A stretch of 64,000 bases of DNA from Spirochaetia bacterium (lineage in GTDB: Bacteria > Spirochaetota > Spirochaetia > UBA9216), in contig CAXXYH010000004.1 of assembly GCA_963677925.2 (NCBI GenBank), forward strand, positions 1,760,001-1,824,000, written 5' to 3'. The number at the start of each line of letters is the position of its first letter. The stretch's first letter is position 1. The notes below the pieces were generated by a model. That model had not been told where the DNA came from, ran no database searches, and saw only the letters and a list, made by a program, of their open reading frames with translations. This document shows positions 4,308 through 23,997 of this stretch, one piece after another. Both the position numbers and the translations under genes were made by a program.

Positions 4308-7300
4308 ATGGCTGCTGAAAACATTTCAGAATCAGATTTTAATCTGTTTTACCGACATTCCTGTGATCTGTTATGCGTATTAAACCCTGAAGGGCTGTTC
4401 GTAAAATTTAATGACGCCTGGAGAGAAATCCTTGGTTATGAACCGGCAGAACTTGAAGATACAAGCATTATTGAATTGATTCATCCCTCCGGGCGTGCCG
4501 ATGCCGCGGATCTCTTTCATAGAAGGACTCTAAAAGAAGAAATCAAAGACTATTTAATATGCTGCAGCCATAAGGACGGCTCCTATCGGTGGCTTCAGTG
4601 GAATATCTTTTCTGAGGGTTCTTATCTCTATGCCTCGGGAAGGGATGTTTCGGATGAAAAGAGAAAAGAAGAAACCCTTCAGCAGTTTAAGACCTCAACC
4701 GATCATGCAAACGATGCAATATACTGGCTTAATAAGGCCGGTGGTTTTGAATATATAAATGAAACAGCCTGTAAAAAACTTGGTTATACCAGGGAAGAAC
4801 TGATGAAACTTTCAATAATGGACATAGTTCCTGAAACTACAGCGGAGATATTTGCAGGAATATGGGAAAGTTATCAGCCTTATAAGGATAAAGCATATTT
4901 AAGCAGAACACTGGAGACCGTACACAGGCGGAAGGACGGGACAATATATCCAGTGGAAGTTTCAGTAAATCATTTCTGGGAACATGACAAAGAATACCAC
5001 ATTGCACATATTCACGATTTGACTGATAGAAAAAGAGAAGAAGAAGCGTTAAGGCGAAGCGAAGAAAAATACAGGAAACTGTTTGAGAATATGTCCAATT
5101 CATACAGTATTTACAGACCCGTATATGATGAGGAAGGAACAGCAGTTGATTTCCAATTCATAGAAGTAAATCCTGCAAGCGCAAGAGATATTGGCCTGCC
5201 TGCCGATGAAATAATCGGTAAAACTATGAAGAGCCTGTTTCCTGCAACAGAAGATTACTGGATTAAGCTTGTAGGAGAAACGGTAAAAACAGGAGTTTCA
5301 CAAAGCTTTACAAACCATTCATCTGTTCTGGATCGTTATTTTGAGGCTCTGGCATATTCACCGGAAAAAGATCTTTGTGCCGTAATCTATACCGATGTAA
5401 CTGAAAGGGTAAAAAAAGAGGAAGAACTTAAACGGCTTACCGGTCTTAACCAGGCAATTATTGATGCCACAAGCAATGGCCTCATTTTTATAAAAGAACG
5501 GAAGGTTGAATGGGTAAACGAAACTCTTTTAAATATGTTCGGATACTGTTTTGAAGAACTCATAGGGCAGAGTGCGGAAATATTCTACGGTGATAAAAAA
5601 CAGTTTGATTACATAGGTAAAGAAGCCTATCAGAAACTTTTAAAAGGTGAAATTTTCAGAATTGAATTAAGAGGGAAGAAGAAAGACGGAACCCTGTTCT
5701 GGTGTATGCTGTCCAGCAAAGCCACCGATCCTGAAGATTTGTCGAAGGGTTCACTGTGGACAGTTGAGGATATAGATGAACGGAAACAGAACGAAAAAAA
5801 GCTTTATAAATTCAAAGCCTCTATTGATTATACCGCTGATTCTGTTTTCTGGATTAATAGCCAAGCAGGATTTGACTATGTAAATGAGCAGGCCTGTAAG
5901 TCTTTAGGATACACCCATGATGAATTAATGCAGTTAAAGGTATCTGATCTTGATCCGAATTTTAAAATTGAAGATTTTAAAAAAAACTGGAAAAGATTAT
6001 CCGAAGAAAGAAAATTTGAAAATTCTATTTTCGAAAGTATTTATATCAGAAAAGACGGCACCACCTTTCCAATAGAATTAACCGCTATATTTATATGGTA
6101 CCAGAATAACGGGTTACAGATAATTTACGTCAGAGATATCACTGAACGCAAACGGAGCGAGGAAGCGCTGCTGTCAAGAGAAAGAGAATTGCAGCGTATA
6201 TACGATATTGCACCTGTAGGAATAGGTCTTATACGGGATCGAAAGATCATAAACCTTAATAAGGCGGTAAGCAGAATAATCGGTTATGAAGAAAAGGAAT
6301 TAAAGGGAAGAAGCTCCGACTTTCTATACAGTTCACAGGCTGAGTATGAAAGGGTAGGCGGTGATCTTTATCAGGACATGATAATAAAAGGTGTCGGTGA
6401 GATAGAAACCGAACTGTTGAGAAAGGACGGAACAAAGATCGCCGCTCTAATTGCAGTAACCCTTCTTGATCCATCGGAACCTTCAAAAGGAAACATTTTT
6501 ACAGTAATAGATATTACTGAACGTAAAAAACATGAAAATCAGTTAAAGGCTGAAGAAGAGAGATTCCGGGCCCTTGCGGATAATGTTCCAGGGGCGATTT
6601 ACATGTGCAGATATAATGCATATTATTCAATGCTTTATCTCAATGATAGAGTTCAGGAGATCACCGGTTATCCGAAAGAATATTTTTTGTCGGGCAGGCT
6701 TAATTTTACTGAAATTTATCATCCTGATGATATTGGAAAGATCGGGGCGGCTGTGGATGAGGCTGTTAAAAATAAAGGGCAGTTCGAAGTCTTTTACCGG
6801 ATAAAGCATAAAAGTGGTGAGTGGCGATGGGTTCATGAGCTGGGTGTCGGAATCTATGAAGATGGAAAAATAAACTACCTTATCGGCTTTTTTCTTGATG
6901 TAACGGAAGAAAAGAATGCTAAAGAAAGAGCCGAGGAGAGTGAACAGCGTTATAAAGCACTTCACAACGCCTCATTCGGAGGCATCACAATCCATGATAA
7001 GGGTCTTATCCTCGATTGTAATCGCGGTCTATCTGATATTACCGGGTTTTCTTATGAAGAGCTTATTGGTATGAATGGCCTGCTGTTAATTGCGGAAGAA
7101 TACAGAGATACTGTCATGTCGAATATTAAAAAAGGTTATGAAAAACCATACGATGTCTTCGGCGTGCGTAAAAACGGAGAATACTATCCTCTCAGGCTGG
7201 AAGCACGGGAAATCCCATACAAAGGGAGGCAGGTTCGATCTGTAGAGTTCAGGGATATTACGGAACAGAAAGAGATTGAAAAACAAATTATTCTTGAAAA

Positions 7301-8504
7301 AGAACGGGCAGAAGAGAGTTCGTATTTCTTACGGGAGTCACAGCGTTCCGGAAGGATCGGTTCTTATAAAATGGTATACAGTGAAAGGTACTGGATAACA
7401 ACCGAGACCCTTGACAGTATCTTCGGGGTAGAACATTCGGATGGGAAAAAATCAATAAATGACTGGTTTGAAATTATTTATGCCGAAGACTTCGAAATGA
7501 TGAGTAACTATTTTCGTGAAGATGTTATCGGTAAAAGGCAGGACTTCAACAAGGAATACCGTATTATCAGAAAGAATGACCAGGAGGTAAGATGGGTACA
7601 GGGAATCGGTAAATTATATTTTGATGATAATGGTGAAATTAACAGCATGCTGGGCACTATTCAGGATATTACCGAACGGAAACTTATTGAAGAAGAACGC
7701 AGAACCATAAATATCTCACTTGAGAAAATGGTGAAAGAGAAAACGCATGACCTTGAAACGGCAAATGAGGCTCTTAAAGCAACGCTTAAAAACCTTAATG
7801 AGACTCAGGCTCAGCTGCTGCAGTCTGAAAAAATGGCTTCCCTCGGAATTTTGACCGCCGGGGTATCGCATGAAATCAACAATCCTCTGAATTTTATCAC
7901 GACCGCTTATCATGGATTTTTGGATATGGGGCTTGAGGATCAAAATGAAGACGCTGCTTTTTTTCTTGAAGCATTGAAAACAGGTGTGGAGAGAGCCGGC
8001 GATATTGTAAAAAGTCTGAACCAGTTCAGTAGAAGCAATAAATCTACCGACGAGGATTGCGATATTCATGAGATTATAGACAACTGTCTTGTAATGATGA
8101 GAAACCAGCTTAAAGACAGGATCGAAGTTACTAAAAATTATTTATCAGAACCCCAGATAATTTCAGGAAATGTAGGTGCAATGCATCAGGTTTTCATCAA
8201 CCTTCTGTCAAATGCCGAGCATGCGATTGAAGAAGATGGCCGTATCGATATAGAAACCCGGCTTAGCGGTGATGAATTGATTGTTGAAATAATAGATACA
8301 GGCTGCGGTATATCAAAAGATAATATGAAAAACATTACAGATCCTTTCTTTACAACCAAAAAACCGGGCAAGGGTACCGGCCTGGGACTTTCAATCACCT
8401 ATAATATTGTAAATGAACATGGTGGTAGGCTGGAATTCGAATCTGAAGAAAACGCCGGGACGACAGCCCGCGTCTCCCTGCCATTGAAAAGGAATGTTAA
8501 ATAA
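4308..8504 (+). CDS. Cytoplasmic multi-PAS (~9 PAS/PAC) sensor histidine kinase
   Basis: Repeated PAS/PAC units ending DITERK-like; H-box SHEINNPL, N-box [28 protein letters not shown]; no TM segment seen. Confidence 0.92.
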
Positions 8505-9528: not shown

Positions 9529-12099
9529 ATGAGATACGATAAATTAACTCTTAAAGTACAGGAAGCGCTCCAGGAAGCGGATTCAATTGCAAGAGACTAT
9601 AACCATACCGGGATAGATATACCTCATTTCTTCAAGGCTCTGTTAGAGCAGGAAGGAGGTGTAATCCCGCCCCTCCTTGACCGGATCGGGGCAGACAAGG
9701 CGATAATTCTTTCTGAAATTGAACAGATTCTGGAAAAAACTCCCAAGGTTTACGGCGACAGCGCCCAGGTAGGGCTTGTCCCGGCTTTGAGCAATGTTAT
9801 TGCCCAGGCGGAAAAGGAATCGCATAAACTGAAGGATGAGTTTACCAGCTCCGAACATATCCTGCTGAGCATTCTTGGTACAGACAGTCAGACGGCTGCC
9901 GTTCTTAAAAGAGCTGGCGTAAGCCGTGATGCAGTGCTGGGTTCACTGAAGGCTCTGCGGGGAAACCAGCGCGTAACAGACCAGAACCCGGAAGAAAGAT
10001 ACCAGGTTCTGCAGAAATACTGCAAAGACCTCACAGAATTGGCCAAAAAGGGCAAACTTGATCCGGTAATCGGGCGCGATGAAGAAATTCGCCGCGTAAT
10101 GCAGGTTCTTTCCAGAAGGACAAAGAACAACCCTGTTCTCATCGGAGAACCGGGAGTAGGAAAGACAGCAATAGCTGAGGGCCTTGCAGGCCGGATTATA
10201 TCCGGGGATGTCCCGGACTCTCTCAAGAACAAGAAGCTGCTTGCACTGGATCTTGGTGCCCTCATCGCAGGCGCTAAATTCCGCGGCGAGTTCGAGGAGA
10301 GACTGAAGGCTGTAATTGCAGAGATAGCCGAGGCCGAGGGTGAGATTATCCTCTTTATTGATGAGCTCCATACCCTCGTGGGCGCCGGAGCGGCCGAAGG
10401 ATCTACCGACGCGTCAAACCTTCTGAAGCCCGCACTCGCACGCGGAGAACTTCATGCCGTGGGTGCTACAACCCTCGATGAATACCGCAAGCACATTGAA
10501 AAGGACCCTGCCCTCGAAAGGCGTTTCCAGCCGGTATTCACTAAGGAACCCTCGGTCGAGGACTCAATTTCAATTCTCCGCGGCCTGCAGGAACGCTATG
10601 AAGTACATCACGGTGTAAGAATCAAGGATGAGGCGCTTATTGCCGCCGCCGTTCTTTCCGACCGCTATGTAACATCCAGGTTTCTTCCGGACAAGGCCAT
10701 AGACCTGGTAGATGAGGCTGCAAGCCGGCTTAAGATGGAAATTGAAAGCCAGCCTACCGAACTCGACCAGATTGAGCGCAAGATTCTGCAGCTGAATATT
10801 GAGAAGCAGGCTCTTTCCCGCGAAGATGACGAGGCTTCGGCTGAAAGACTGAAAAATATCGAGAAGGACCTTTCTGAACTCAAAACAAAGCGTGATGTAA
10901 TGTTTCTGCAGTGGCAGAATGAGAAGAATATTATTGACGAGATCCGGGCTCTTAAAGCCGAACTTGAAGAGCTTAAAATCGATGAAGTACGTTACGAGCG
11001 AGAGGGCAACCTCAGCAGGGCTGCTGAAATAAAACATGGTCTCATACCGGGAAAACAGGCCCTTATAAAGGAAAAAAGCGAAGCTCTTGAGGGTCTTCAG
11101 AAGGGGAACAGTCTCCTGCGTGAGGAAGTAGAGGAAGAGGATATCGCTCGTGTTGTTTCAACATGGACCGGCATCCCCGTTTCAAAGATGCTTGCCTCTG
11201 AAATGGAGAAGTATCTTAAGCTTGAAGAGATACTCGAGCAGAGGGTTGTCGGGCAGGATACTGCGATAGAAGCAGTGGCTGATGCTATCCGCCGTAACAA
11301 GACCGGACTGTCGGATGACTCCAGACCCCTTGGTTCATTCATCTTTATAGGTCCGACCGGCGTGGGCAAGACAGAGCTTGCAAAAACCCTGGCCGAGTTC
11401 CTGTTCAGCGATGAGAAGGCTCTTACAAGGATTGATATGAGCGAATACATGGAGAAGTTCTCGGTCTCAAGGCTGATTGGAGCTCCTCCGGGATATGTCG
11501 GTTATGATGAGGGCGGACAGCTGACTGAAGCAGTCAGGAGAAGACCCTATTCTGTTGTCCTTTTCGATGAAATTGAGAAGGCACATCCCGATGTTTTCAA
11601 CATACTCCTTCAGATGCTTGATGACGGACGTCTGACCGACAGTCAGGGCAGGGTAGTGGACTTCCGCAATGCGATCATTATCATGACAAGCAACCTCGGA
11701 AGCGAACTGCTGCTTCAGGCCGATAATCCTGAAGATGTCCGCGGCGATATCGACAGGCTGCTTAAGTCGACTTTCAAGCCTGAGTTCCTCAACCGTATTG
11801 ATGAAATAATATCATTCAAACGGCTTGGTCAGGATCAGATCCATAAGATAGTAAGCATCCAGCTGAAGATTCTGATAAAGAGACTTGAAGATAAGAAGAT
11901 TAGCCTGCAGATAAGTGATGAAGCGGTAGATCTCCTTTCGAAGGAAGGCTTTGACCCGGCTTTCGGTGCAAGACCTCTTAAGCGGACCATTCAGAACCTT
12001 CTACAGAACCCGATGGCAAAGAAAATGCTTGCCGGGGAAATAAAGGAAGGAGACACAGTTAATGTGTCTGTTGCTGACGGAGTTCTTTCGTTCAGCTGA
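9529..12099 (+). CDS. clpB: ATP-dependent chaperone ClpB
   Basis: Two AAA+ modules ([16 protein letters not shown]), long coiled-coil middle domain, 856 aa. Confidence 0.97.
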
Positions 12100-12118
12100 A
12101 CCATATAATTTAAACTTC

Positions 12119-12150
12119 GAGGCATCGTTTTTACACGGTGCCTTTTTTTT
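12119..12150 (+). terminator. Rho-independent terminator after clpB
   Basis: AGGCATCGT-loop-ACGGTGCCT followed by a T8 run. Confidence 0.85.
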
Positions 12151-12234
12151 ATCTTTATCGATAATTACATATGTGATATCGTTCAGGCATTCAAAATATA
12201 GTCATTGTAATCGTTGAACCGGGGAGGGCTGTTT

Positions 12235-13479
12235 ATGGTCGAAGAAACAAAAGAACTCTGTTCTCTTCTGTGTAAGGGTACGCAGATTTCTTCACTGCAG
12301 GGTATTGCCGACCTTGCTTATGAAGTTCTTGGAAACCCGGTTTTTATAGAGGACAGGGCTCAGGTCAAGCTTGCATATTCTAAAAATGTACAGATAGAAG
12401 ACCCTTCATGGAGGCAGACTATCATCGATGAGGGAGGGCAGCAGCCTCTAAGGCAGGCGCAGCTTAAAGAGGTTGAATCAGCCCATATGGGTTCAATAAA
12501 AAGCCATCTTCCGGTGATAGTTGAAGACAGCCATCTGCCTATACCCAGGCTTATAAAGACCCTCACTGTGGGCGGTGTTCATGTAGGCACAATGATTTCG
12601 CCGGCCTACTGCAGACCTTTCAAGGAGGAGGATATTGAACTGATGGAGATCCTCTCCTATTATGCCATCGTTCAGCTTCAGCGCCGAAATTATAATATCT
12701 CTTCAAACAAAAAATCCGTTGAAAACTTTCTGATTCGTCTGCTTAATAACGAAAAAGTTCCAGGCGAGGCTATGCAGGAATATATTAAAATTCTTGACTG
12801 GAACAGCAGGCCCTATAATTACGTGATAGTTATCTGTTCGCGCGATGATAAGGAAACTGCGCCTATAAAAGATATTATTCACGCCTTCCATTATACAAAC
12901 TGCTGCCGAACCATGATTTACAATAACCTGATCGTCAGGGTTTATAACTCCGAGAACTGGATAAGCGACTGGGAGAATGAGGATCCGGGGATGACTGATG
13001 TATTGAAAAAGCATAACCTTATTGCCGGAATAAGCAGGAGTTTTCCTGATCTAAGCGAGCTATACGACCATTTTCAGCAGGCTCGATGTATGCTTGATGT
13101 TGCATCTACCCTTAAGAACGGCAGCCTGTATTTTGCCTATAACGAGAATTCCATTTACCATATGTTCGATACAGCCTCAGGGCTCTACGATTTAAAGCAG
13201 TTCTGCCACCGGAAAATACTCGCTCTTGAAGACTATGATATCAAACATAAGACTGATCTTGTTCCGACTCTGCATATGTATCTCGAGTCTTTGCGGAGTA
13301 TTTCAAAAACCGCGGAAATAATGAAGATTCACCGGAATACCGTATCCTACCGCATAAACAGGTGCCTTGAACTGCTTGATACCAGGATTGATGAAGGAAA
13401 TGAAATGTTTTCGTTTATTTTCTCATTAAGGATACTGGAATACAGCAATAAAAAAAGGGGCCAGGCGGCCCCGTTTTAG
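12235..13479 (+). CDS. PucR/CdaR-family transcriptional activator
   Basis: N-terminal GAF-like sensor, GISRSF..L..L linker and C-terminal HTH (TLHMYL..SISKTAEIMKIHRNTVSYRI); likely ATG at 12235 after GGGGAGG. Confidence 0.9.
   Translation: MVEETKELCSLLCKGTQISSLQGIADLAYEVLGNPVFIEDRAQVKLAYSKNVQIEDPSWRQTIIDEGGQQPLRQAQLKEVESAHMGSIKSHLPVIVEDSHLPIPRLIKTLTVGGVHVGTMISPAYCRPFKEEDIELMEILSYYAIVQLQRRNYNISSNKKSVENFLIRLLNNEKVPGEAMQEYIKILDWNSRPYNYVIVICSRDDKETAPIKDIIHAFHYTNCCRTMIYNNLIVRVYNSENWISDWENEDPGMTDVLKKHNLIAGISRSFPDLSELYDHFQQARCMLDVASTLKNGSLYFAYNENSIYHMFDTASGLYDLKQFCHRKILALEDYDIKHKTDLVPTLHMYLESLRSISKTAEIMKIHRNTVSYRINRCLELLDTRIDEGNEMFSFIFSLRILEYSNKKRGQAAPF
13450..13477 (-). terminator. Terminator for the minus-strand oxidoreductase operon, embedded in the regulator's last codons
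   Basis: A7-GGGGCC-AGGC-GGCCCC reads as hairpin + U7 on the minus strand. Confidence 0.6.
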
Positions 13480-13525
13480 GGTGGAAGCTGTGCCGATTAA
13501 TCGATACAGCAAATTGATAATTTAA

Positions 13526-14938
13526 TTATTCAGCTGATATCAGGAAGCTGTCGATTGAAGCCGCTGCTTCTTTTCCTTCCGCAACTCCCCATATAACCAT
13601 GCTCTGGCCGCGTCTTGCATCGCCGCAGGCAAACACCTTCTCAACACCTGTGCTGTAGGTTTCTTCATCAGCAGAGATATTTCCCCGGTCATCAGTTTTT
13701 ATACCAAGCTCTTTCAGGATTCCGGTATCAGGACCGGTGAACCCCATGGCTGTAATGACCATATCAGCCTTCCAGGTTTTTTCTGTACCTTCGGAATCCT
13801 TTGTTTTTACAGCCTCAACAGTTCCGTCCGGTGTCTTAATAATTTCCTCAGTGAAAATGCTGTAAATTCTCGGGTCTTCATGGAATTTGCTGACGGCTTC
13901 CTCCTGACTGTATTCTGTCTTGAAGATCTTAGGCCATTCCTTCCATGGAAGCTTTTCTGTTCCGGGAGCCGCATCCGGCTTCGGGCTTATTTCAAACTGG
14001 TAAACTGAGGCGGCTCCCTGACGGACAGCAGTCCCCAGACAGTCTGTCCCTGTGTCGCCGGCACCTATTATTATTACATTCTTACCTTCAGCATTCAGCA
14101 CAGGATCAATCACATACCCGTCTTCAAGAGCATTCTTTGTGCCGGCTTTTAGGTATTCAACTGCAGGAATAATCCCCTCAGCATCGCTGCCGGGAACCTG
14201 AAGCTTTCTGTTTTCTGCAGTTCCAATTGCAACAAGTACAGCATCAAAATCCTTAAGTACATCCGCTGCTGAAACATCCTTTGAGACTTCAGTCCCGCAA
14301 CTAAATTTAACGCCGAACTTTTTCATAAGGTCAAAACGTTTTGTAAGAAGTTGCTTATCAAGCTTCATGTTCGGAATTCCGTACATCATCAGCCCGCCGG
14401 GTTCTTCCTGCTTTTCAAATACAGTTACTGAATGGCCCTTCCTCATAAGATCCCATGCTGCTGATATTCCTGCAGGACCGGCTCCTATGACGGCGACCTT
14501 TTTCCCTGTTGAGAGGGCAATTTTTATTCCGTTATTCTTACCTGCATATTTGTCAGCCAGAAAGCGTTCAAGCCCTCCAATGCTGACAGGTTCATGCTTT
14601 ATACCCCTGGAGCATTCGCTCTCGCACTGTTTTGACTGATCGCAGACCCTGCTGCAGACCTCAGGCAGTGGACTGTTTGAATTAAGCAGTTCCCATGCTC
14701 CGTCGAAGTCTTTTTCGCCTATTTTCTTATTTATTTCCGGAATCGGATTATGTATTGGACAGTTCGCAGCGCAGTACTGTCCCGGACAGTTCATGCACCT
14801 TAGAGCTTCCGTCACTGCCAGCTCTGCAGTATATCCGGTTTTAATCTCATTATAATTATCAATTCTGGCAGACGGTGCCTGAGCCGGCATTGCAGTTTTC
14901 TGCGGTGTCATGTCAGGTTTTCTTATGTTTGTACTCAT
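13526..14938 (-). CDS. GltD/NfnB(SudA)-like NAD(P)H-dependent Fe-S flavoprotein (glutamate synthase small-subunit family), no large subunit nearby
   Basis: RCMNC..C...CP, CSRVCDQSKQCESEC, GAGPAG, GAGDTGTDC, GDARRGQS..WGVAEG. Confidence 0.88.
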   Translation of the reverse strand: MSTNIRKPDMTPQKTAMPAQAPSARIDNYNEIKTGYTAELAVTEALRCMNCPGQYCAANCPIHNPIPEINKKIGEKDFDGAWELLNSNSPLPEVCSRVCDQSKQCESECSRGIKHEPVSIGGLERFLADKYAGKNNGIKIALSTGKKVAVIGAGPAGISAAWDLMRKGHSVTVFEKQEEPGGLMMYGIPNMKLDKQLLTKRFDLMKKFGVKFSCGTEVSKDVSAADVLKDFDAVLVAIGTAENRKLQVPGSDAEGIIPAVEYLKAGTKNALEDGYVIDPVLNAEGKNVIIIGAGDTGTDCLGTAVRQGAASVYQFEISPKPDAAPGTEKLPWKEWPKIFKTEYSQEEAVSKFHEDPRIYSIFTEEIIKTPDGTVEAVKTKDSEGTEKTWKADMVITAMGFTGPDTGILKELGIKTDDRGNISADEETYSTGVEKVFACGDARRGQSMVIWGVAEGKEAAASIDSFLISAE

Positions 14939-14949
14939 TGCTTTCCTCT

Positions 14950-16656
14950 TTATTTATTCAGCTTATCTATGTATTCAGACGCATTTCCGCCGGACAGATA
15001 TGATGAGGCTGTAGCCCATGTCAGTTCAGAAATCGGAGCAAGCTCACCCTGCATATGCATAGCTGATGTGGCATCGCCTACACCGTAGAGTCCGGGAATA
15101 ACAGAGCCGTCCTCCCTTGTCACTTCACACTTCGTGTTTACCCTCAGACCGCCGAAGGCTCCTTCAGAAAAGCGCTGTCCGTAAATAGCGTAGTAGGGTC
15201 CTGAGCTTTCAAGTTCAATGAGATTTTTTTCAGTCTTTCCAAAATCCTCATCCTTGCCGGCTTTGCAGAATCCGTTATATTTTTCTATGGTTTCCGTCAG
15301 TTTTGAAGGTTCCACTCCAAGCTTTTCCGCCAGTTCTTCTATAGTATCTGCCTTGTATACCGGCGGTTTCGGTAAGGCAATTTCTTCATCAAGATCCTGC
15401 TGATAGCACTCATAAACAAATTTTTCCTTAGCCAGAGCCGGATCGTTCAGATACTGATTAGCAATCCTGTCTATTCCTGCCTGACTGTAGATCCCCCAGG
15501 TGATTTCCTTTGGCTGATCCTTAATTGTGAATCTTCCTGTCATCAGTCCGCCGGTTTCATCCTGCCAGCGTTCCCCGTTAAGATTAATCCAGACGCTTGT
15601 CGGGTGTTCAAGAATTCTGTAAAGACAGTAGCTGAACGGATGGTGGGCCGGTCCGAAGGTGGATACGAACATGCGCTGCGGATCAGGCTCTACGCCGAGT
15701 TCCTGCAGCATATCAATTGCATCTCCGGTGTCTGAAGGCACTGAAAAGCGGTGTATCGGTGTCTCACAGTCGAAGAAGTTGAAATACTTCTGCAGCTTTT
15801 CGTCGCTTCTTCCCATTCCGCCGGTGGCAAGAACAACGGCTTTAGCCTTGATATTGATAATTCCGCCGGCATCTTCGGCTGTTACGCCGGTTACTGTTCC
15901 GCTCTCATCAACAGTCAGATGTTTTGCAGCGGTTTCGGTCATTATCTCAACATCGAGCTTCTGCTCCCGTATTGTCTTAAACATCTGGTACTTTATGAAT
16001 GTTCCTGCCCAGCCGGGGCCTATAGCTGGATCCCTGCAGAGCAGGTTGTGATACATTCTGTCCGGAAAAACGATCATTGCCGATGTGTACATCGGGCCGA
16101 CATTTCTCTGTGAACCCAGAGATACTATATCAAAATGCTTTTCTGTATCAGGAAACTGTAGAAGCCAGTCAAAGAACTCTCCGGATGTATATACTGCAGT
16201 TTCTATCAGTTCTTTTTCAATCTTTTTGCCTGATCTGTTCCAGAATTCTTCAACTGCATCAACCCTGACATCTTCAAAGTTGTTTCTTTTATGAAGTTCG
16301 GTGTATACAGGAAAGAACATATGGGCGTAGTCAGTGTTTCCGCCTGTCTTTTTTGATTTTTCCAGAACTATAACCTTTTTGCCTGTCTGAGCGGCTCTAA
16401 CTGCTGCGATCATTCCGGTACCGGATCCGCAGACAACAAGGTCGCATTCCATATCAATGGGTTCGTGTTTCTCTATTATAATCTCTGCATCAACATCTTT
16501 TATGCTTGCTGTATGACAGAGCTTTTCGCATAACCCGCATTCAACGCATATGTCCTGATCTATTTCATACTTAAGACCTGCATAGTTTATGGCCTGCATG
16601 GGGCATTCCATCGCACAGTTGTGGCAGCCGACACAGGTATCCGCAATTTTGTACAT
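14950..16656 (-). CDS. FAD-dependent oxidoreductase (FAD_binding_2/flavocytochrome c-like) with N-terminal 2[4Fe-4S] ferredoxin domain
   Basis: Likely start MYKIADT (SD AGGAG); CVGCHNCAMECP and CVECGLCEKLC; VVCGSGTG, EK...GGNT, LATGG, GGLRVN, IPGLYGVGD. Confidence 0.88.
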   Translation of the reverse strand: MYKIADTCVGCHNCAMECPMQAINYAGLKYEIDQDICVECGLCEKLCHTASIKDVDAEIIIEKHEPIDMECDLVVCGSGTGMIAAVRAAQTGKKVIVLEKSKKTGGNTDYAHMFFPVYTELHKRNNFEDVRVDAVEEFWNRSGKKIEKELIETAVYTSGEFFDWLLQFPDTEKHFDIVSLGSQRNVGPMYTSAMIVFPDRMYHNLLCRDPAIGPGWAGTFIKYQMFKTIREQKLDVEIMTETAAKHLTVDESGTVTGVTAEDAGGIINIKAKAVVLATGGMGRSDEKLQKYFNFFDCETPIHRFSVPSDTGDAIDMLQELGVEPDPQRMFVSTFGPAHHPFSYCLYRILEHPTSVWINLNGERWQDETGGLMTGRFTIKDQPKEITWGIYSQAGIDRIANQYLNDPALAKEKFVYECYQQDLDEEIALPKPPVYKADTIEELAEKLGVEPSKLTETIEKYNGFCKAGKDEDFGKTEKNLIELESSGPYYAIYGQRFSEGAFGGLRVNTKCEVTREDGSVIPGLYGVGDATSAMHMQGELAPISELTWATASSYLSGGNASEYIDKLNK

Positions 16657-16686
16657 TGTATAAAGTCTCCTATTCAGTGTACTGCC

Positions 16687-16751
16687 ATTATAGTGGACAC
16701 TTGAAAGGCAGACATCATGCCCCGAGCACAAATTCCGGGAGCTTTTTGTGC
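16687..16751 (-). promoter_or_regulatory. Activator-type promoter of the oxidoreductase operon with operator GCACAAA-N12-TTTGTGC
   Basis: Box at 16726-16751; TATAAT on minus strand at 16692-16687, 33 nt away; poor -35 (ATGTCT). Confidence 0.7.
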
Positions 16752-16819
16752 TGAGATGTGATATAAAGGCAGGGCCGCAATCTGTTTAATGCTTCCGGAT
16801 ACTCCGATTTGGTCTTGGC

Positions 16820-16884
16820 GCACAAATCATCAGGTTTTTTTGTTCTTCCGTCATGTAGATAAGTAAATATCGGGATTTTATAAT
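16820..16884 (+). promoter_or_regulatory. Activator-type promoter of the permease operon with operator GCACAAA-N12-TTTGTTC
   Basis: Box at 16820-16845; TATAAT at 16879-16884, 33 nt away; weak -35 (TAGATA). Confidence 0.7.
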
Positions 16885-16986
16885 GGGCATCAATATCAAT
16901 AAAAGCATTAATGCCTAGTTAGTATCTGGTTAAATAGTATACGGATTACCGGGGCGGATGTCTTTTAAAAAGAATAGGAGGGCTAT

Positions 16987-18342
16987 ATGTCTATAGCACT
17001 ATCAGTATTTGGAGTCCTGTTAGGGTTTGTTATGCTCATTCTCCTGACATACAAGGGACTGCATCTTTCCTGGGTATCAATAATCGTCGCCCTGATTTTG
17101 ATGATCACCAGCGGACTTGCAATCGGCAAATCCTGGGATGAAACAATCAACAAGGGTATCGGAATGATGGCAGGAACGCTTATACCGCTGTTCCTGGCGG
17201 GCGCAACGTTCGGAAAAATCGTATCAGTCAGCGGTGCGGCGGATTCTTTCGCCAAAACAGTACTCCGTGCACTTACCGGAAACCTTTCAGCACCTAAAAA
17301 AAGACTGGTAGGCGCTTTCCTCATTATCCTTATGGGTGTCCTTATGGCCTATGCGGGTATTGATAACTTTGCAATTCTTTTCACACAGATAGCAATTGCG
17401 GCAAGTATCATGCATGAGGTAAACATCCCCCGTCGTTTTATTGCGGTTCTTATCATCCTCGGTTCAACCGTAGGCGGTGCGCTTCCTGGTACTCCGTCAA
17501 TCATCAATATATTTGCTGTTCAGTTCCTTGTAGATACAAGCGCTATGGCTGCTCCGGCAATTGCAATCACAGGCGGTCTGTTCATTCTGGTTGCATCCCT
17601 CTGGGGAATGTCAAGAATGTGGGAAAAAGATGTTGCTGCAGGTCAGAATTTTGAGTTCGGCCCTCTTTCCCAGGCAAGGTTTGAAGAAAAGAACCTTCCC
17701 CCCTGGTTCTTTATCCTTATTCCTACAGCCGCAATCTTCGTATGTTTTAATATTCTTCACCTCAGCCCCTTCTTCTCACTTCTTGTAGGTGTCGGTATTT
17801 CAGTTCTCCTGTTCTACCCGTACATGCCTTATAATGAGGAATCAGGAAAGAGCAAACCTATTGCAAAACTCAACAAGCTTGTTGAACAGTTCAACAGCGG
17901 TGCTGAAATTGCAGGTATTCCGGTTATCATCCTTATCAACATGGCTCTTGGACAGCTTATCTCATCAACTCCGGCTTTCGGTTGGATGGTACAGGGAATC
18001 GGCGGAATGCAGGGCTCGATCAGTCCCTATATTCTCTTTGCAGTTCTTTCAATCCTGATAATCGGTATTTCAGCCTCAATGTCCGGGCTTATCGTTATGT
18101 TCAACCTTGCTCATGACCTTTTTATTCCGGTTATGGGAATCAGCGCTATTGCTGCGCACAGAATTGTTGCATTCTCAGGCTTTGTTCTTGATACCCTTCC
18201 GTTTGGAACAATGGTTGTTGCAATAATGCTTCTTACCGGTATCAAGCAGAAAGAAGGTTATCCGCCAATCCTCTTTTCAACAGTCGGTGTTACAGCAGTA
18301 GCCACAGTGATAGTTACTATCATGGCTATGATAATGTACTAG
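16987..18342 (+). CDS. GntP/IT-superfamily organic-acid permease
   Basis: About 12-13 TM; FLAGATFGKIVSVSGAADSFA, LPGTPSIINI and HRIVAFSGFVLDTLP, typical of GntP-like symporters. Confidence 0.8.
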   Translation: MSIALSVFGVLLGFVMLILLTYKGLHLSWVSIIVALILMITSGLAIGKSWDETINKGIGMMAGTLIPLFLAGATFGKIVSVSGAADSFAKTVLRALTGNLSAPKKRLVGAFLIILMGVLMAYAGIDNFAILFTQIAIAASIMHEVNIPRRFIAVLIILGSTVGGALPGTPSIINIFAVQFLVDTSAMAAPAIAITGGLFILVASLWGMSRMWEKDVAAGQNFEFGPLSQARFEEKNLPPWFFILIPTAAIFVCFNILHLSPFFSLLVGVGISVLLFYPYMPYNEESGKSKPIAKLNKLVEQFNSGAEIAGIPVIILINMALGQLISSTPAFGWMVQGIGGMQGSISPYILFAVLSILIIGISASMSGLIVMFNLAHDLFIPVMGISAIAAHRIVAFSGFVLDTLPFGTMVVAIMLLTGIKQKEGYPPILFSTVGVTAVATVIVTIMAMIMY

Positions 18343-18359
18343 ACCGGAGATAATAAAAT

Positions 18360-19265
18360 ATGAGAAGTTTTGCGGATATATTATTTCAGTCGATGATCAA
18401 ACAGAACCCTGACCTCCTTCCGCTTGCGGATACATACGCTGCAACCGAGAATGGAAAACCCGGAGCTCTTGTAATGATGAGCTGCTGGAGCAGTGTTACA
18501 GGGCTGAATTATATAGCGCAATTCTTCTCAGATTCTGAAACCGGACAGCTGTTTGTCACAGCAAACCTTGATGAATCTGGAAAACAGGCAATCTTTTTCG
18601 GAAGGCTGAAGATAGAGGACGGGCTTATCGGCGAACTGGAGCTTTATATAGTCCGTTCACGGGTTGAGGCCGGATTTGTTTTCCTGCCAGAAGAAATGAA
18701 AAAAATTCCGCAGCAGTGGACAGCTGATGTCCCGGCAGGTCAGAAAGCCTCACGCGAAGAACTTCTTGCTGTAGGGAATGCTGTTTTTGACGGAAGTTCC
18801 GGTGAGCAGTTCGAAGCTTCTGAACAAAGTGTTCTTATGGAAATGGGCGGGATAGTCTATGAAGATCCGGACTACCTGGAAGCAATTATGGATGAAAAGG
18901 CGGCCTCTGAAGCCCCTGTCACCATTCCTGCGTCATTTATTCCGGGACGTCCTTCTGATCCCGATGCACGTGTTCTAATTGCTGATGTAGAGCAGGGGGT
19001 TGTAATCAGTTTCGGTGTAGTTTCAGGTTTTGTTTCAGCCTATATCGTGCCGGGAGCAACAGCTTCCTGTTTTGTCCCTGCCTGTATGATTGATATGCAT
19101 CGGAAAACAGTTGAAGCTGCCGATAAAACCGGCAGGAAAATCCTGAAGGAAATGCCGGCAGCCGGTCTTACAGCTGAGATCGTATGTTTTCATTCCGGCC
19201 AGATTCAGGGAATCCACCGGTACGTCAGTGTTCAGGCTCCGGGTGTTGTTTCCTCCTGGGTTTGA
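18360..19265 (+). CDS. Hypothetical cytoplasmic protein with an internal duplication (tandem NTF2/SnoaL-like domains, inferred)
   Basis: SD GGAG; two similar halves (ATENG/LMEMG; DSETGQL/DVEQGVV; LKIEDGLI/VCFHSGQI). Confidence 0.7.
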   Translation: MRSFADILFQSMIKQNPDLLPLADTYAATENGKPGALVMMSCWSSVTGLNYIAQFFSDSETGQLFVTANLDESGKQAIFFGRLKIEDGLIGELELYIVRSRVEAGFVFLPEEMKKIPQQWTADVPAGQKASREELLAVGNAVFDGSSGEQFEASEQSVLMEMGGIVYEDPDYLEAIMDEKAASEAPVTIPASFIPGRPSDPDARVLIADVEQGVVISFGVVSGFVSAYIVPGATASCFVPACMIDMHRKTVEAADKTGRKILKEMPAAGLTAEIVCFHSGQIQGIHRYVSVQAPGVVSSWV

Positions 19266-19290
19266 AAAATAAATAGAATTATTCAGTATC

Positions 19291-19322
19291 AAGGAGGAAC
19301 CTTTCAGATTCCTCCTTTTTTT
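19291..19322 (+). terminator. Rho-independent terminator closing the permease operon
   Basis: AAGGAGGAA-loop-TTCCTCCTT plus T run. Confidence 0.85.
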
Positions 19323-19395
19323 ATATAAAGTTGATTACCATCACGGAATCGTTTTGTGAAAATGCTGCTGCATCGCTTGGATAAATTCAGGGAAG

Positions 19396-19424
19396 TTGAA
19401 ATAATAACTGAATTTATATACTAT
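19396..19424 (+). promoter_or_regulatory. argH promoter with overlapping ARG-box-like site
   Basis: TTGAAA-N17-TACTAT; ACTGAATTTATATACTAT (19407-19424) resembles WNTGAATWWWWATTCANW. Confidence 0.5.
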
Positions 19425-19447
19425 GTGACAAAATTCGGGAGAGTAAA

Positions 19448-20812
19448 ATGGCAAAACTTTGGCAGAAAAATTATGAACTCAATGAACTTGTTGAAAAATT
19501 TACGGTAGGTCTGGACTACCAGCTTGATATTGCGCTGGTTCCATCTGACTGCGTCGCAAGTATTGCCCAGGCCCGGATGCTTCATTCGATAGATATTCTC
19601 ACAGCAGATGATCTTGAAAAGCTGGAAAAAGGTCTGAATGAGATAATCGGTCTCCAGAAGGGCGGTAAGTTCCATATTCAGCGTTCTGATGAGGACTGTC
19701 ATACGGCGATAGAAAATCATCTGATCAGCAGCATAGGAGAGGCCGGTAAAAAGATTCATACCGGACGTTCCCGGAACGACCAGGTTCAGACCGCTCTTCG
19801 AATGTTCTCAAGGGCTGCTGTTCTTGACCTGATTGAACGCGGAACCTCTCTTGTCGAAACAATCCTTGATTTTGCAAAAGCCAACAGTTCTGTCCCCATG
19901 CCCGGACGTACCCATATGCAGATAGCAATGCCGTCTTCGGTAGGGCTCTGGGCTGCGGCCTGGGCTGAAGAGCTTGTAGACAGCCTGAAAAACCTTGCAT
20001 CCATATATACCCTTGTAAATCAGTGTCCTCTCGGTGCTGCAGCAGGTTACGGAACTCCGCTTCCGCTTAACCGTGAAATGACAGCAGAACTTATGGGCTT
20101 TGCCAAAGTGCAGAATAATGTCATATATGTCAATAATTCACGCGGAAGGCTTGAATCGCTTGTTCTGAATGCCCTTGAGCATTCCGTACTTGTGCTAAGC
20201 AGCGCTGCACAGGATCTTATTCTATTTTCACTGCCCGAGTTCGGCTATTTCAGCCTTCCTGCAGAGCTCTGTACAGGTTCCAGTATTATGCCGCAGAAGA
20301 AGAATCCAGACGGGCTTGAGCTGATGCGTGCCAAATCAGCAGCCCTGTCTTCATATTCGATGAATGTTAAGCAGATTGTCCGCTCACTGCCTTCAGGTTA
20401 TAACCGTGATTTTCAGGAAACAAAGGAACCATACCTCAGGGGGATTGATCTTGCCGGTCAGTGCTTTGATATAATGAATCTTACTTTCTCAAAACTGATT
20501 GTTAATGAAGAGAATCTTCTTAAAGGTTTTTCACCTGATATTTTTGCTACAGATGCAGCATATGAGCTCGTTGACAGCGGAATGAGTTTCCGTGATGCCT
20601 ATAGAGAGGTCGGTCTGAATCTTGAAAAGTATGGTGATATGGATGCCTCGGATGTGAACAAATCGCGGATAAGCACCGGCACTGCCGGAAACCTCAATCT
20701 TGAGGCGGCTGTAAAAGAAAACAGCCTGCTTAAAGAACAGGCTGCTGCTGAGAAATCAGTACTTGATGCTGCAGTTGCAGCTCTCTGCGGAACTGCAGTC
20801 AGTTTATTGTAA
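19448..20812 (+). CDS. argH: Argininosuccinate lyase
   Basis: HTGRSRNDQ, PGRTHMQ and the GSSIMPQKKNPD signature. Confidence 0.95.
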   Translation: MAKLWQKNYELNELVEKFTVGLDYQLDIALVPSDCVASIAQARMLHSIDILTADDLEKLEKGLNEIIGLQKGGKFHIQRSDEDCHTAIENHLISSIGEAGKKIHTGRSRNDQVQTALRMFSRAAVLDLIERGTSLVETILDFAKANSSVPMPGRTHMQIAMPSSVGLWAAAWAEELVDSLKNLASIYTLVNQCPLGAAAGYGTPLPLNREMTAELMGFAKVQNNVIYVNNSRGRLESLVLNALEHSVLVLSSAAQDLILFSLPEFGYFSLPAELCTGSSIMPQKKNPDGLELMRAKSAALSSYSMNVKQIVRSLPSGYNRDFQETKEPYLRGIDLAGQCFDIMNLTFSKLIVNEENLLKGFSPDIFATDAAYELVDSGMSFRDAYREVGLNLEKYGDMDASDVNKSRISTGTAGNLNLEAAVKENSLLKEQAAAEKSVLDAAVAALCGTAVSLL

Positions 20813-22704: not shown

Positions 22705-23997
22705 ATGCCATTCAACAAAAATGTTAGAGTCAGGTATCAAATTCTGGTGGTTTCTATGGTATTCACAAGGTCGTCTCTGCTAGGGGTCATTGCATGTCCC
22801 GGTGCGGAAAAGATTTCGAGCGAGATCATATCAAATCTTAAATCAATATATCTGAAGTATTATAAGAAGACTACAGACTCACTTGTATCTAGATATGATT
22901 ATTCACGTGATGATGTCGTGAGAAATATTAACTTTATAAATGAACTGACTTCGGCAAAGGGTTCCAGAAACCGTGATGTTACGAAGTATAAAGCCCCGTC
23001 CTATCAGATTCCAGTGAAGTTTACACGCTTCGCAAACGGTGAAGTTAAGTCTGAGATTCAGACTTCTATCCGTGATATGGATATTTATATCGTTCAGGAT
23101 TTAGCTAACCAGTATCCGCTTGATATAAATGGATGCAGTGAGAAGTGCGCTCTTTCTGTAAACGATCATCTGATGATTCTCTTTACTACTATTGATGCTG
23201 TCATCGGTGCCGGAGCAAAGAGCGTAACTCTTGTTATTCCAACCTATCCCTACAGCCGTCAGCACAAAAAGAAGGGAAGGGAAGCGCTTACAGCAGCCTG
23301 GTTCGGCAGGACCTGTGAGCTTATGGGTGTTTCAAGGATAATTACACTTGATATTCACTCAAAAGCTATTGAAAACTGCTTTCAGTCTCTTCATCTTGAA
23401 AATCTTCATGCTTCATATCAGATTATCCGGGCTTTGAGTGAACTCGTTGATTTTTCCAGGGATGATCTTGTTGTGGTATCTCCGGATACAGGAGCTGTTG
23501 ACCGGAATAAATACTTTGCAGGAACCCTTAAAAAACCGCTTGCTATGATTTACAAGGAGCGCGATTATTCCCAGGTCTCTGCAAATGCCAGTGAATCCAA
23601 TATTACTACAACCAAACTTCTTGGTGATGTAAGAGGGAAGATAGTCTTCATGGCCGATGACATGCTCGGAACCGGCGGAACCCTTATAAAAGCAATGGAA
23701 ATGCTGAAAGAGATGGGTGCTGAGAAGATTATCTGTGCGATAAGCCTTCCCCTGTTTACCGGTGATGCTGCTGAAGACTTTGAGAAAGCTTATAAAGAAG
23801 GGCTTTTTTACAGGATAATCGGTACGAATTCTGTATATCATACCTCTAATCTGATGGACAGGGAGTGGTATGTTTCGGCATCTATCAGCGAACTTTTTGC
23901 AAGAACCATCTCAAGGGTTCATCATGGTAATTCTCTCAGTTCGCTTCTTGATAATTCAAAAATAATCAGCAGACACCTTACTCATGAGCATGAGTAA
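22705..23997 (+). CDS. prs: Ribose-phosphate pyrophosphokinase (long spirochaete-type); true start may be ATG at 22756
   Basis: FANGE, YPYSRQ, LDIHS, VSPDTG, DDMLGTGGT. Confidence 0.92.
   Translation: MPFNKNVRVRYQILVVSMVFTRSSLLGVIACPGAEKISSEIISNLKSIYLKYYKKTTDSLVSRYDYSRDDVVRNINFINELTSAKGSRNRDVTKYKAPSYQIPVKFTRFANGEVKSEIQTSIRDMDIYIVQDLANQYPLDINGCSEKCALSVNDHLMILFTTIDAVIGAGAKSVTLVIPTYPYSRQHKKKGREALTAAWFGRTCELMGVSRIITLDIHSKAIENCFQSLHLENLHASYQIIRALSELVDFSRDDLVVVSPDTGAVDRNKYFAGTLKKPLAMIYKERDYSQVSANASESNITTTKLLGDVRGKIVFMADDMLGTGGTLIKAMEMLKEMGAEKIICAISLPLFTGDAAEDFEKAYKEGLFYRIIGTNSVYHTSNLMDREWYVSASISELFARTISRVHHGNSLSSLLDNSKIISRHLTHEHE

Follow-up and report, generated by a model that had tools for sequence, protein, structure and literature searches.

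Two adjacent minus-strand genes in a window of 64,000 nucleotides from a Spirochaetia bacterium (assembly GCA_963677925.2, contig CAXXYH010000004.1, positions 1,760,001 to 1,824,000) encode a flavoenzyme with a fused ferredoxin domain and a protein that resembles the small subunit of glutamate synthase (GltD). Comparative evidence from related loci supports the view that the two products belong to one functional unit, probably a GltD-module iron-sulfur flavoenzyme of variant design, and that the five-gene unit in which it stands, together with a PucR-type regulator, a GntP-like permease and a two-domain protein of DUF8021 type, is valid only locally. The two core genes, in window coordinates, are:

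13526-14938, minus strand: GltD-like flavoprotein of 470 residues, predicted to bind NAD(P)H, flavin adenine dinucleotide (FAD) and two [4Fe-4S] clusters (Fer4_20, Pyr_redox_2)
14950-16659, minus strand: catalytic subunit of 569 residues from the ATG at 16659, predicted to carry a ferredoxin domain with two [4Fe-4S] clusters fused to an FAD_binding_2 domain (Pfam, start-codon comparison)

We read the cassette, at a probability of roughly 60%, as a substrate-induced cytoplasmic NAD(P)H-dependent reductase with its uptake system. In this model the GltD-like subunit would oxidize NAD(P)H at its own FAD; its two [4Fe-4S] clusters would carry the electrons on to the fused ferredoxin domain, which has two [4Fe-4S] clusters of its own. 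From there they would reach the FAD of the FAD_binding_2 domain, where the activated double bond of an imported organic acid would be reduced, serving the anaerobe as an electron sink or a detoxification route. The GntP-like permease would import the substrate, the PucR-type regulator would bind two GCACAAA-N12-TTTGTKC sites between the divergent operons, and the DUF8021-type protein may be an accessory confined to this lineage that acts on the same substrate as an enzyme or binds it. Formation of a physical complex, the direction of electron flow, the assignment of the regulator to these sites and the substrate are points that we infer.

The pairing of the two flavoproteins supports this model. 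Forty-five homologues of the flavoenzyme were aligned and used for a scan of species-representative genomes, in which at least 533 relatives were listed. We compared 51 loci whose flavoenzymes share 48-95% identity with the query; almost all of them carry the label Oscillospiraceae or Clostridiales and come from gut, rumen or soil, and two are from Spirochaetia (L001 and L046). A census of their neighbours was taken with hidden Markov models (HMMs) run on six-frame translations. A GltD-like open reading frame (ORF) lies directly downstream of the flavoenzyme gene, on the same strand, in 45 of the 51 loci, mostly at distances of -70 to +22 nt (44 loci with readable ORF calls); three loci without a partner (L032, L038 and L044) end at a contig edge.

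Adjacency is kept although the partner itself has changed. NCBIfam models applied to six partners distinguished a GltD type (TIGR01317) from an NfnB type (TIGR01316). Within the alignment of 36 partners, 12 form a clade of NfnB/TIGR01316 type with 100/100 support, and 24, the window protein among them, are of GltD/TIGR01317 type. On the flavoenzyme tree (FastTree), the 12 enzymes with NfnB-type partners make up two separate clades, one of which is sister to the group of the window enzyme, L001 and L002, while the other is nested beside L008 and L010, whose partners are of GltD type. This distribution implies that the electron-input subunit was replaced in place, the module having been swapped at least once with its position preserved. 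That a GltD-like neighbour persists despite the change of subfamily argues for a functional need rather than for inherited gene order. Moreover, the Cys ligands of the four predicted [4Fe-4S] clusters show no or almost no variation, and the same is true of both dinucleotide motifs. The pairing, and with it the view of the two flavoproteins as one unit, is thus supported by comparative evidence across both partner subfamilies, and the cofactor motifs that the electron wire of the original prediction would need are conserved.

Two further observations concern these trees. Close flavoenzymes in matching neighbourhoods with different GltD-like subfamilies are seen when L003, L005, L006 and L035 are set against L008 and L010 (and in eight further loci). 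Six loci titled Bacteroidaceae, Bacteroides or Barnesiella (L011, L012, L027, L029, L045 and L047) have flavoenzymes and partners that nest among those of Oscillospiraceae in both trees, which could reflect gene transfer or mis-binned contigs.

The product of 13526-14938 fits a GltD-like NAD(P)H oxidoreductase module, of the kind represented by the β subunit of glutamate synthase (GltS), the N-terminal part of dihydropyrimidine dehydrogenase (DPD) and NfnB, as judged from the presence of both the iron-sulfur domain and the adrenodoxin-reductase-like FAD and NAD(P)H domains (Fer4_20, 114.6 bits; Pyr_redox_2, 96.5 bits; Pfam). Cys48, Cys51, Cys56 and Cys60 together with Cys99, Cys105 and Cys109 make up two [4Fe-4S] motifs that are invariant among the 36 aligned partners, and so are the dinucleotide-motif residues Gly152, Gly154 and Gly157 and Gly292 and Gly294. 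The closest solved chain is the small chain of glutamate synthase (7mfm, 328 bits), with further full-length matches to the Nfn-type structure 4ylf (259 bits) and to DPD chains (135.8 bits). No GltB was found within the 64-kb window, in which all four ORFs of at least 1000 residues were scanned; these encode a PAS histidine kinase, RpoB, RpoC and one protein without a family. In all 45 paired loci the place upstream of the GltD-like ORF is taken by the flavoenzyme gene, so that gltB does not adjoin the GltD-like gene there.

The catalytic subunit matches FAD_binding_2 (PF00890) with 154.8 bits and bears Fer4 motifs at residues 27-74 of the longest ORF. Among the 45 aligned flavoenzyme sequences, Cys38, Cys41, Cys44 and Cys48 of the ferredoxin domain are invariant, and Cys9, Cys12, Cys15 and Cys19 nearly so. 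The best solved matches of the catalytic domain are 1d4c (158.7 bits) and 6t85 (143.5 bits), and its nearest solved structures are flavocytochrome c3 (Fcc3) and urocanate reductase. All of its scores against curated families fall far below the cut-offs. The best NCBIfam match, to the vinylphenol reductase VprA (NF053717), reaches 181.9 bits in two stretches against a cut-off of 600, and within this model of 481 positions the match of the window enzyme does not begin before profile position 140, past its ferredoxin domain. Neither flavocytochrome c (TIGR01813, 146.1 bits against 285.45) nor 3-ketosteroid delta-1-dehydrogenase (NF009478, 149.1 against 789) nor the tricarballylate dehydrogenase TcuA (NF006130, 111.8 against 369, in one full-length stretch) is reached. 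The 16 Pfam matches include no DHO_dh-type family, and the catalytic domain differs from the flavin mononucleotide (FMN) barrel of DPD/PreTA, which resembles dihydroorotate dehydrogenase (DHODH); PreT/PreA is the split form of DPD in bacteria. No plasmid-borne homologue was found at 1e-30. One metagenome protein of 1161 residues (P0202) repeats the ferredoxin-FAD_binding_2 unit in tandem, and each of its two units shares about 33% identity with the window enzyme.

A 2021 review describes the GltD-like modules of GltS, DPD, Nfn and AegA as relays that take electrons from NAD(P)H and deliver them, by way of low-potential [4Fe-4S] clusters, to another protein or domain (PMC8097209). DPD comes closest in design to the window pair: a GltD-like module with NAD(P)H site, FAD and two [4Fe-4S] clusters feeds a catalytic flavoprotein with its own ferredoxin-like domain of two [4Fe-4S] clusters, an 8-iron-ferredoxin-like extension of the catalytic flavin domain, and the enzyme reduces a C=C bond (PMC8097209). 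In contrast to the DHODH-like FMN barrel of DPD, the catalytic domain of the window enzyme is FAD_binding_2, with FAD and the fumarate-reductase fold, and its ferredoxin domain is N-terminal instead of C-terminal. The pair thus looks like the DPD/GltS/Nfn design with a fumarate-reductase-fold catalytic domain in place of the FMN barrel. GltBD and NfnAB share the family of the electron-input subunit, and partners of both subtypes occur beside the flavoenzyme. However, the window holds neither GltB nor NfnA, and the acceptor would be a ferredoxin-fused FAD_binding_2 enzyme, which the review does not name among the partners (PMC8097209).

From the side of the catalytic subunit, the same fold is found in Fcc3, in UrdA and in the NADH:acrylate and NADH:cinnamate reductases, and soluble FAD_binding_2 reductases are described as reducing unsaturated carboxylates as electron sinks (10.1101/2023.03.04.531086; 10.1101/2022.01.20.477176). 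Whereas these enzymes draw electrons from haem c or from NADH modules of FMN_bind or old yellow enzyme (OYE) type, the window enzyme has a fused ferredoxin and a separate GltD-like subunit, and the substrate residues of Fcc3 are replaced in the alignment. TcuABC likewise combines an FAD_binding_2 flavoenzyme, an iron-sulfur partner and a carboxylate transporter, with the full-length match to TcuA far below its cut-off; TcuB, however, is a membrane iron-sulfur protein that feeds the quinone pool in the oxidative direction and not a soluble NAD(P)H module. VprA of Lactiplantibacillus plantarum is the top curated family both for the catalytic domain and for flavoenzyme paralogues in L001 and L046, all with scores far below 600. 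VprA is reported to be LysR-regulated and to have been characterized in L. plantarum only (PMC10295242).

Other candidates were set aside on their enzyme type, as far as the accessible parts of their reports describe it: OsrA and OsrB, which reduce steroids, belong to the OYE-type Fe-S flavoenzymes (PMC11482826), SpiE, a cholestenone reductase, is a short-chain dehydrogenase/reductase (PMC13692258), and IsrA, a putative isoprene reductase, is a fused GltD-like protein with no FAD_binding_2 domain mentioned in that text (PMC10134865). The 6-hydroxynicotinate reductase of Eubacterium barkeri may be a relative with a fused ferredoxin. A survey of gut reductases centres on secreted PF00890 enzymes, and the words 'ferredoxin' and 'glutamate synthase' are absent from its main text (10.1101/2022.12.26.521950). 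A description of the ferredoxin-FAD_binding_2 and GltD-like pairing was not found in the literature, in a search that left out most subscription journals and is thus no proof of absence; the original prediction, which recognized no named pathway in the combination, agrees with this result.

The same components could in principle serve flavin-based electron bifurcation, in which NAD(P)H is oxidized at the GltD/NfnB-like FAD, one electron goes to a high-potential organic acceptor and the other to free ferredoxin, and energy is conserved. The gap between NAD(P)H and enoate-type acceptors is large, and anaerobes often exploit such gaps. One third of the aligned partners (12 of 36) are of NfnB type, and NfnB carries the bifurcating FAD of NfnAB (PMC8097209). 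The window partner, however, is of GltD type, the GltD-like modules of GltS and DPD do not bifurcate (PMC8097209), the pair has no conserved neighbour that would supply a third subunit or an additional ferredoxin, and the fused ferredoxin domain resembles an in-line wire more than a branch. We hold bifurcation to be unlikely.

The reductase-and-uptake reading extends beyond the pair to its surroundings. Between clpB and argH (window region 12100-19400) stand five genes that span 12214-19265; the features of this region other than the core genes are:

9529-12099, plus strand: ClpB (TIGR03346, 1312.7 bits against a cut-off of 1232)
12119-12144, plus strand: terminator-like hairpin with U run 3' of clpB, left edge of the cassette (-14.5 kcal/mol, z -5.4, 0 of 200 shuffles fold equally well)
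12214-13479, plus strand: PucR-family transcription regulator, 421 residues as longest ORF, TTG start (HTH_30, 52.7 bits against a cut-off of 27)
13457-13472, minus strand: terminator-like GC hairpin with U run 3' of the GltD-like gene, overlapping the final codons of the convergent regulator gene (folding)
16726-16751, no strand: operator-like palindrome GCACAAA-N12-TTTGTGC, at 67-92 nt 5' of the ATG of the flavoenzyme gene (motif counts, conservation)
16820-16845, no strand: second operator-like copy, GCACAAA-N12-TTTGTTC (motif counts, conservation)
16856-16884, plus strand: sigma-70-like promoter match TAGATA-17-TATAAT, 10/12, 5' of the permease gene (consensus match)
16987-18342, plus strand: divergent GntP-family-like permease, 451 residues (GntP_permease, 27.6 bits against a cut-off of 22.5)
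18360-19265, plus strand: two-domain protein of DUF8021 type, 301 residues, starting 17 nt past the permease stop (homologue labels)
19291-19317, plus strand: hairpin with U run 3' of the DUF8021-type gene, right edge of the cassette (-12.5 kcal/mol, z -1.3, weakest of the three)
19448-20812, plus strand: ArgH (TIGR00838, 308 bits against a cut-off of 279.5)

With the Pfam and NCBIfam scores listed for each gene, the gene order, families and placement between clpB and argH are as the original prediction had them, and the two flavoprotein genes are indeed 11 nt apart (14938 to 14950). The terminators proposed to bound the cassette are borne out by three U-run hairpins that fold, the right-hand one weakly; it had escaped a first scan because only loops of 3-8 bases were allowed there. 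As its longest form (14950-16731, minus strand), the flavoenzyme ORF remains open up to a TTG at 16731. The 72 nt between this codon and ATG 16659 align with those of relatives in the manner of non-coding DNA: they contain a conserved palindrome, and L046 differs by a 32-nt indel. For this reason the start is probably ATG 16659, giving 569 residues.

The window belongs to the core chromosome, with rpoBC, tuf, secY and rny present. L001, its nearest relative, is a Spirochaetia genome with about 89-90% DNA identity over the cassette region. Base composition gave no clear sign of recent horizontal transfer, and no Rfam family, riboswitches included, was found at E<=1 in 11900-19600. Elsewhere in the window, a 1322-residue ORF at 52752-56720 (plus strand), between ribosomal-region genes and RNase Y, has no Pfam family at 1e-8 and an unusually low G+C content at third codon positions (0.27). 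A histidine kinase of 1398 residues with multiple PAS domains (4308-8504, plus strand) lies just upstream of prsW and clpB, and the ribose-phosphate pyrophosphokinase at 22705-23997 (plus strand) is a long form of 430 residues, compared with the usual ~315, that scores above its cut-off (NF005299, 477.9 bits).

The 327-bp divergent region between the flavoenzyme and permease genes holds two copies of GCACAAA-N12-TTTGTKC. The window contains four strand matches of this motif, where 0.09 are expected and none of 100 shuffles reaches four. Both copies are kept in L001 and in L046, even though the coding DNA of L046 is only ~74% identical. Across the 51 loci, L001 and L046 have two sites each and the other 49 have none, and shuffled sequence yields 0.35 sites on average for the whole set of loci. 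A distance of 11 nt separates the end of the second copy from the -35-like hexamer of the top promoter match 5' of the permease gene, a match assigned by consensus only in a region with 19 promoter-like sites against 13.3 expected. A site that abuts the -35 of the permease promoter takes a position typical of an activator. We regard the two copies as a candidate operator and propose that they are sites of the adjacent PucR-type regulator.

This regulator is recognized by its C-terminal HTH_30 domain alone (residues 349-407). Its nearest named equivalog is AdeR, and with 69 bits, far under the cut-off of 700, it can be assigned to the family only. The GntP_permease match of the permease covers residues 7-246, and NCBIfam gave no match for the window protein; a related permease in L009 scores 40.9 bits against 292.75 on TIGR00791. 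Hydropathy suggests some 11-14 hydrophobic segments. Permease homologues occur in 17 of the 51 loci, two of them cut by contig ends, and the Spirochaetia and Oscillospiraceae permeases align with an hhalign probability of 98.6%. PucR homologues stand beside the pair in 13 loci, all of which also have the permease.

Taken together, the loci describe a widespread two-gene core with variable surroundings. The combination of regulator, permease and pair, which recurs in 13 of the 51 loci, is moderately conserved by this count, and all five genes are found together only in L001 and L046. Thirteen Oscillospiraceae loci have a gene for a membrane-anchored PpiC-type rotamase between those for regulator and permease, and in nine of them an α/β hydrolase gene is found there as well; FAD_binding_2 paralogues that lack the ferredoxin domain and OYE-type Fe-S flavoenzymes often occur nearby. 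Even the two Spirochaetia cassettes differ from that of the window, as both have a sixth gene, absent from the latter, for a VprA-like FAD_binding_2 paralogue without a ferredoxin domain (292-297 bits). In L001 it forms a 483-residue ORF in a 1458-bp insert (5868-7326) between the DUF8021-type gene and argH, where the window has only 55 bp (19336-19391); in L046 it lies between the GltD-like gene and the regulator. At 4524-7275 (minus strand), L046 continues beyond its permease and DUF8021-type genes, on the same strand, with a molybdopterin oxidoreductase of 750 residues, for which PhsA is the best model (341 bits against a cut-off of 694), and a DmsB-like iron-sulfur subunit, and on the other side it has an OYE/BaiCD-like enzyme and a LysR regulator. 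Because the five-gene set is confined to Spirochaetia loci and the neighbours vary, the cassette is best described, from these comparisons, as a local assembly around the core. The self-contained five-gene cassette of the original prediction, with its expected conservation across genomes, therefore holds in part: the neighbourhood comparison found the pair widely (45 of 51 loci) and the pair with permease and regulator in 13, whereas the full set is restricted to two loci that carry an additional gene, and the DUF8021-type protein is confined to one lineage.

The DUF8021-type protein itself matched no Pfam or NCBIfam family, and four homologues likewise gave no Pfam model match. Its type rests on precomputed PF26061 (DUF8021) labels carried by some of its 81 close homologue clusters, including P0123, P0138 and P0185, and on Atlas look-alikes of P0123 and P0129, which are DUF8021 clusters at 0.95-0.97 from Pseudomonadota and fungi. 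The family counts 1933 representatives at E<=1e-3 in a library of 1.84 billion proteins, and no mention of DUF8021 was found in the literature. The duplicated domain already suspected in this protein is real, given that residues 1-104 align with residues 135-296 at a probability of 96.8% (E 2.5e-10; hhalign, 177 sequences); with 52 sequences the duplication was not significant (hhalign P 0.03). Each half comprises helices, then x-E-N-G, then a strand pair '...K(V/I)..G.I.E.E', a pattern which, by eye only, we take to recall NTF2/SnoaL-like domains. Residues conserved in the family are Thr29-Glu30-Asn31, Asp58, Glu72, Arg82, Glu92, Glu94, Arg132, Glu161, Arg204 and Asp209. A PDB profile search with the family returned nothing significant (best 9qzd_A, E 0.12), and hhalign detected no similarity between either half and the SnoaL_4 proteins that neighbour the pair in some loci. 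Two Oscillospiraceae neighbours (c4 and c8) considered as homologues were rejected by hhalign; they are the PpiC-type rotamase and the α/β hydrolase.

In five of six fetched relatives, the match begins after an N-terminal stretch of 25-55 residues that is signal-peptide-like by eye and ends at a conserved C-D-R-x-C-L. Relatives with the extension or in tandem form are P0209, P0213, P0236, P0272 and P0289, forms of ~600 residues being tandem copies. The window protein has neither such an extension nor a hydrophobic N-terminus and is therefore predicted to be cytoplasmic. Occurring in only two of the 51 loci, both from Spirochaetia, it is, on this sampling, a lineage-specific addition.

With such a distribution, the region might comprise two unrelated units, namely the reductase pair with its regulator and a separate transport or binding operon of permease and DUF8021-type protein. 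The rarity of the DUF8021-type protein (2 of 51) and of the permease (17 of 51) fits this division, as do the many DUF8021 relatives with signal-peptide-like extensions of 30-50 residues (by eye) in unrelated taxa and the continuation of the L046 permease-DUF operon into the molybdopterin oxidoreductase and its iron-sulfur subunit. Yet loci that combine permease and pair come from Oscillospiraceae and Spirochaetia alike and from both active-site groups described below, and the operator-like sites lie between the two operons, one near each start. Moreover, equal lengths of the longest contig hint, indirectly, that four homologues of the DUF8021-type protein may each lie on one contig with a homologue of the flavoenzyme; two of these cases (P0130/P0015 and P0141/P0011) are outside the 51 loci. 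A division into two units appears rather unlikely to us.

We mapped the residues of the flavoenzyme by HMM alignment to 1d4c, at the level of sequence only. Fcc3 His365 corresponds to Gly336 of the window enzyme, Thr377 to Tyr347, Glu378 to Arg348 and Arg381 to Glu351, while Arg402 is replaced by Leu372, His504 by Glu499 and Arg545 by Glu539. By this alignment the fumarate/urocanate substrate residues are lost, and the flavoenzyme is accordingly unlikely to be a fumarate or urocanate reductase. His339/His340 and Arg376, 3-4 residues away, could be shifted equivalents of the Fcc3 residues, and the invariant Arg364 is part of a general G-x-R-F-x-x-E motif. The position of Fcc3 His504 is occupied by Glu or Asp in 52 of the 53 long copies of the 51 loci and by Asp in 11 of 16 ferredoxin-less VprA-like paralogues. 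Two signature groups can be distinguished among the GltD-coupled enzymes. The first, which includes the window enzyme, has Tyr-Arg-Glu at 347/348/351, mostly Arg376 and mostly Glu539; the second has Ala-Asp-Leu at 347/348/351, mostly Thr376, and Lys or Arg at 539. Two such groups make more than one substrate likely across the family.

Loss of the catalytic Arg of the reductases would also suit a dehydrogenase that works in the oxidative direction, in the manner of tricarballylate dehydrogenase, ketosteroid dehydrogenase or L-aspartate oxidase, and delivers electrons from the imported acid via the clusters to NAD(P)+. FAD_binding_2 includes dehydrogenases, TcuA (111.8 bits, full-length) and ketosteroid dehydrogenase (149 bits) are among the matches, and PucR regulators and permeases are typical of catabolic clusters. 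However, both matches are far below their cut-offs, the cassette holds no further catabolic genes, and C-C desaturation with NAD(P)+ as acceptor is strongly uphill. We regard the oxidative direction as quite improbable.

Several observations weigh against the reductase-and-uptake reading itself. None of the Fcc3 residues mapped above, which bind or protonate the substrate, is kept, and the chemistry could be other than C=C reduction. The permease is absent from 34 of the 51 loci and the DUF8021-type protein from 49, and loci that share the active-site signature of the window often have an Opp-type ATP-binding cassette (ABC) transporter and an HxlR regulator instead. L019, L025 and L029 have downstream sequence without a GltD-like partner, and, as weak evidence, no fused flavoenzyme-GltD protein was found among six long relatives. 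Finally, the GltD-like protein scores 444.3 bits on TIGR01317, just 3.4 bits short of the cut-off of 447.7, and the partner in L002 clears it with 501 bits, so that sequence alone cannot tell the window protein from a true GltD. Even so, it is highly improbable that the gene is an ordinary glutamate synthase small subunit for a GltB encoded elsewhere, incidentally placed beside the flavoenzyme: this near-miss, the glutamate synthase small chain as closest solved structure and the fact that only 64 kb of the genome are visible favour it, but 45 of 51 loci keep the two genes side by side, over a range of 48-95% flavoenzyme identity and with partners from two subfamilies, and the lack of GltB in the window and of an adjoining gltB in the paired loci also speaks against it.

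Our leading guess for the substrate, a tentative one, falls on the phenolic acids of plants, more precisely on those of hydroxycinnamate or vinyl-phenolic type. The hints to this are all weak and mutually consistent: likeness to VprA, esterase-like hydrolase and ene-reductase neighbours, a SnoaL_4 protein with likeness to LdpA, and plant-fibre habitats. The VprA hint comprises the 181.9 bits of the catalytic domain, the 292-297 bits of the L001 and L046 paralogues and the shared acidic residue at the Fcc3 His504 position. Neighbours in Oscillospiraceae loci include the α/β hydrolase, which is membrane-anchored, OYE-type ene-reductases and the SnoaL_4 protein. The latter has 244 residues, directly follows the GltD-like gene in L015 and L018 and lies nearby in L021 and L033; its only PDB matches are chains of the diarylpropane (lignin-dimer) lyase LdpA, at a weak E of 3.5e-6. 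Plant-fibre habitats are named in the record titles. A broader picture, in which pairs of this kind form a large uncharacterized class of cytoplasmic iron-sulfur flavoenzyme complexes in anaerobes, mislabelled 'fumarate reductase' and 'glutamate synthase small subunit', that reduce plant phenolic acids or vinyl-phenolics in gut, rumen and sediment, with those of NfnB type bifurcating to ferredoxin and the DUF8021-type protein being a new enzyme that prepares or converts the substrate, is unlikely to hold in all its parts.

The pair is common, with at least 533 relatives in species-representative genomes and 1246 homologue clusters in the protein search, and most of these relatives belong to Oscillospiraceae that live in human gut, rumen and soil, habitats whose metabolite pool is shaped by the reductive metabolism of compounds from diet and host. 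Among the few source names of homologues that were seen, all are generic ('fumarate reductase/succinate dehydrogenase flavoprotein', 'FAD-binding protein', 'FAD-dependent oxidoreductase'). Given these names, and with the L002 partner passing the GltD cut-off and the window protein barely missing it, a distinct enzyme class may hide under two housekeeping labels; existing annotation would mislead for both members of the pair. The window version, with its own regulator, candidate operator and permease, offers a compact starting point. Identification of its substrate would add a fifth kind of acceptor to the family of GltD-like modules and might assign a biotransformation of gut or rumen, such as phenolic-acid hydrogenation, to genes.

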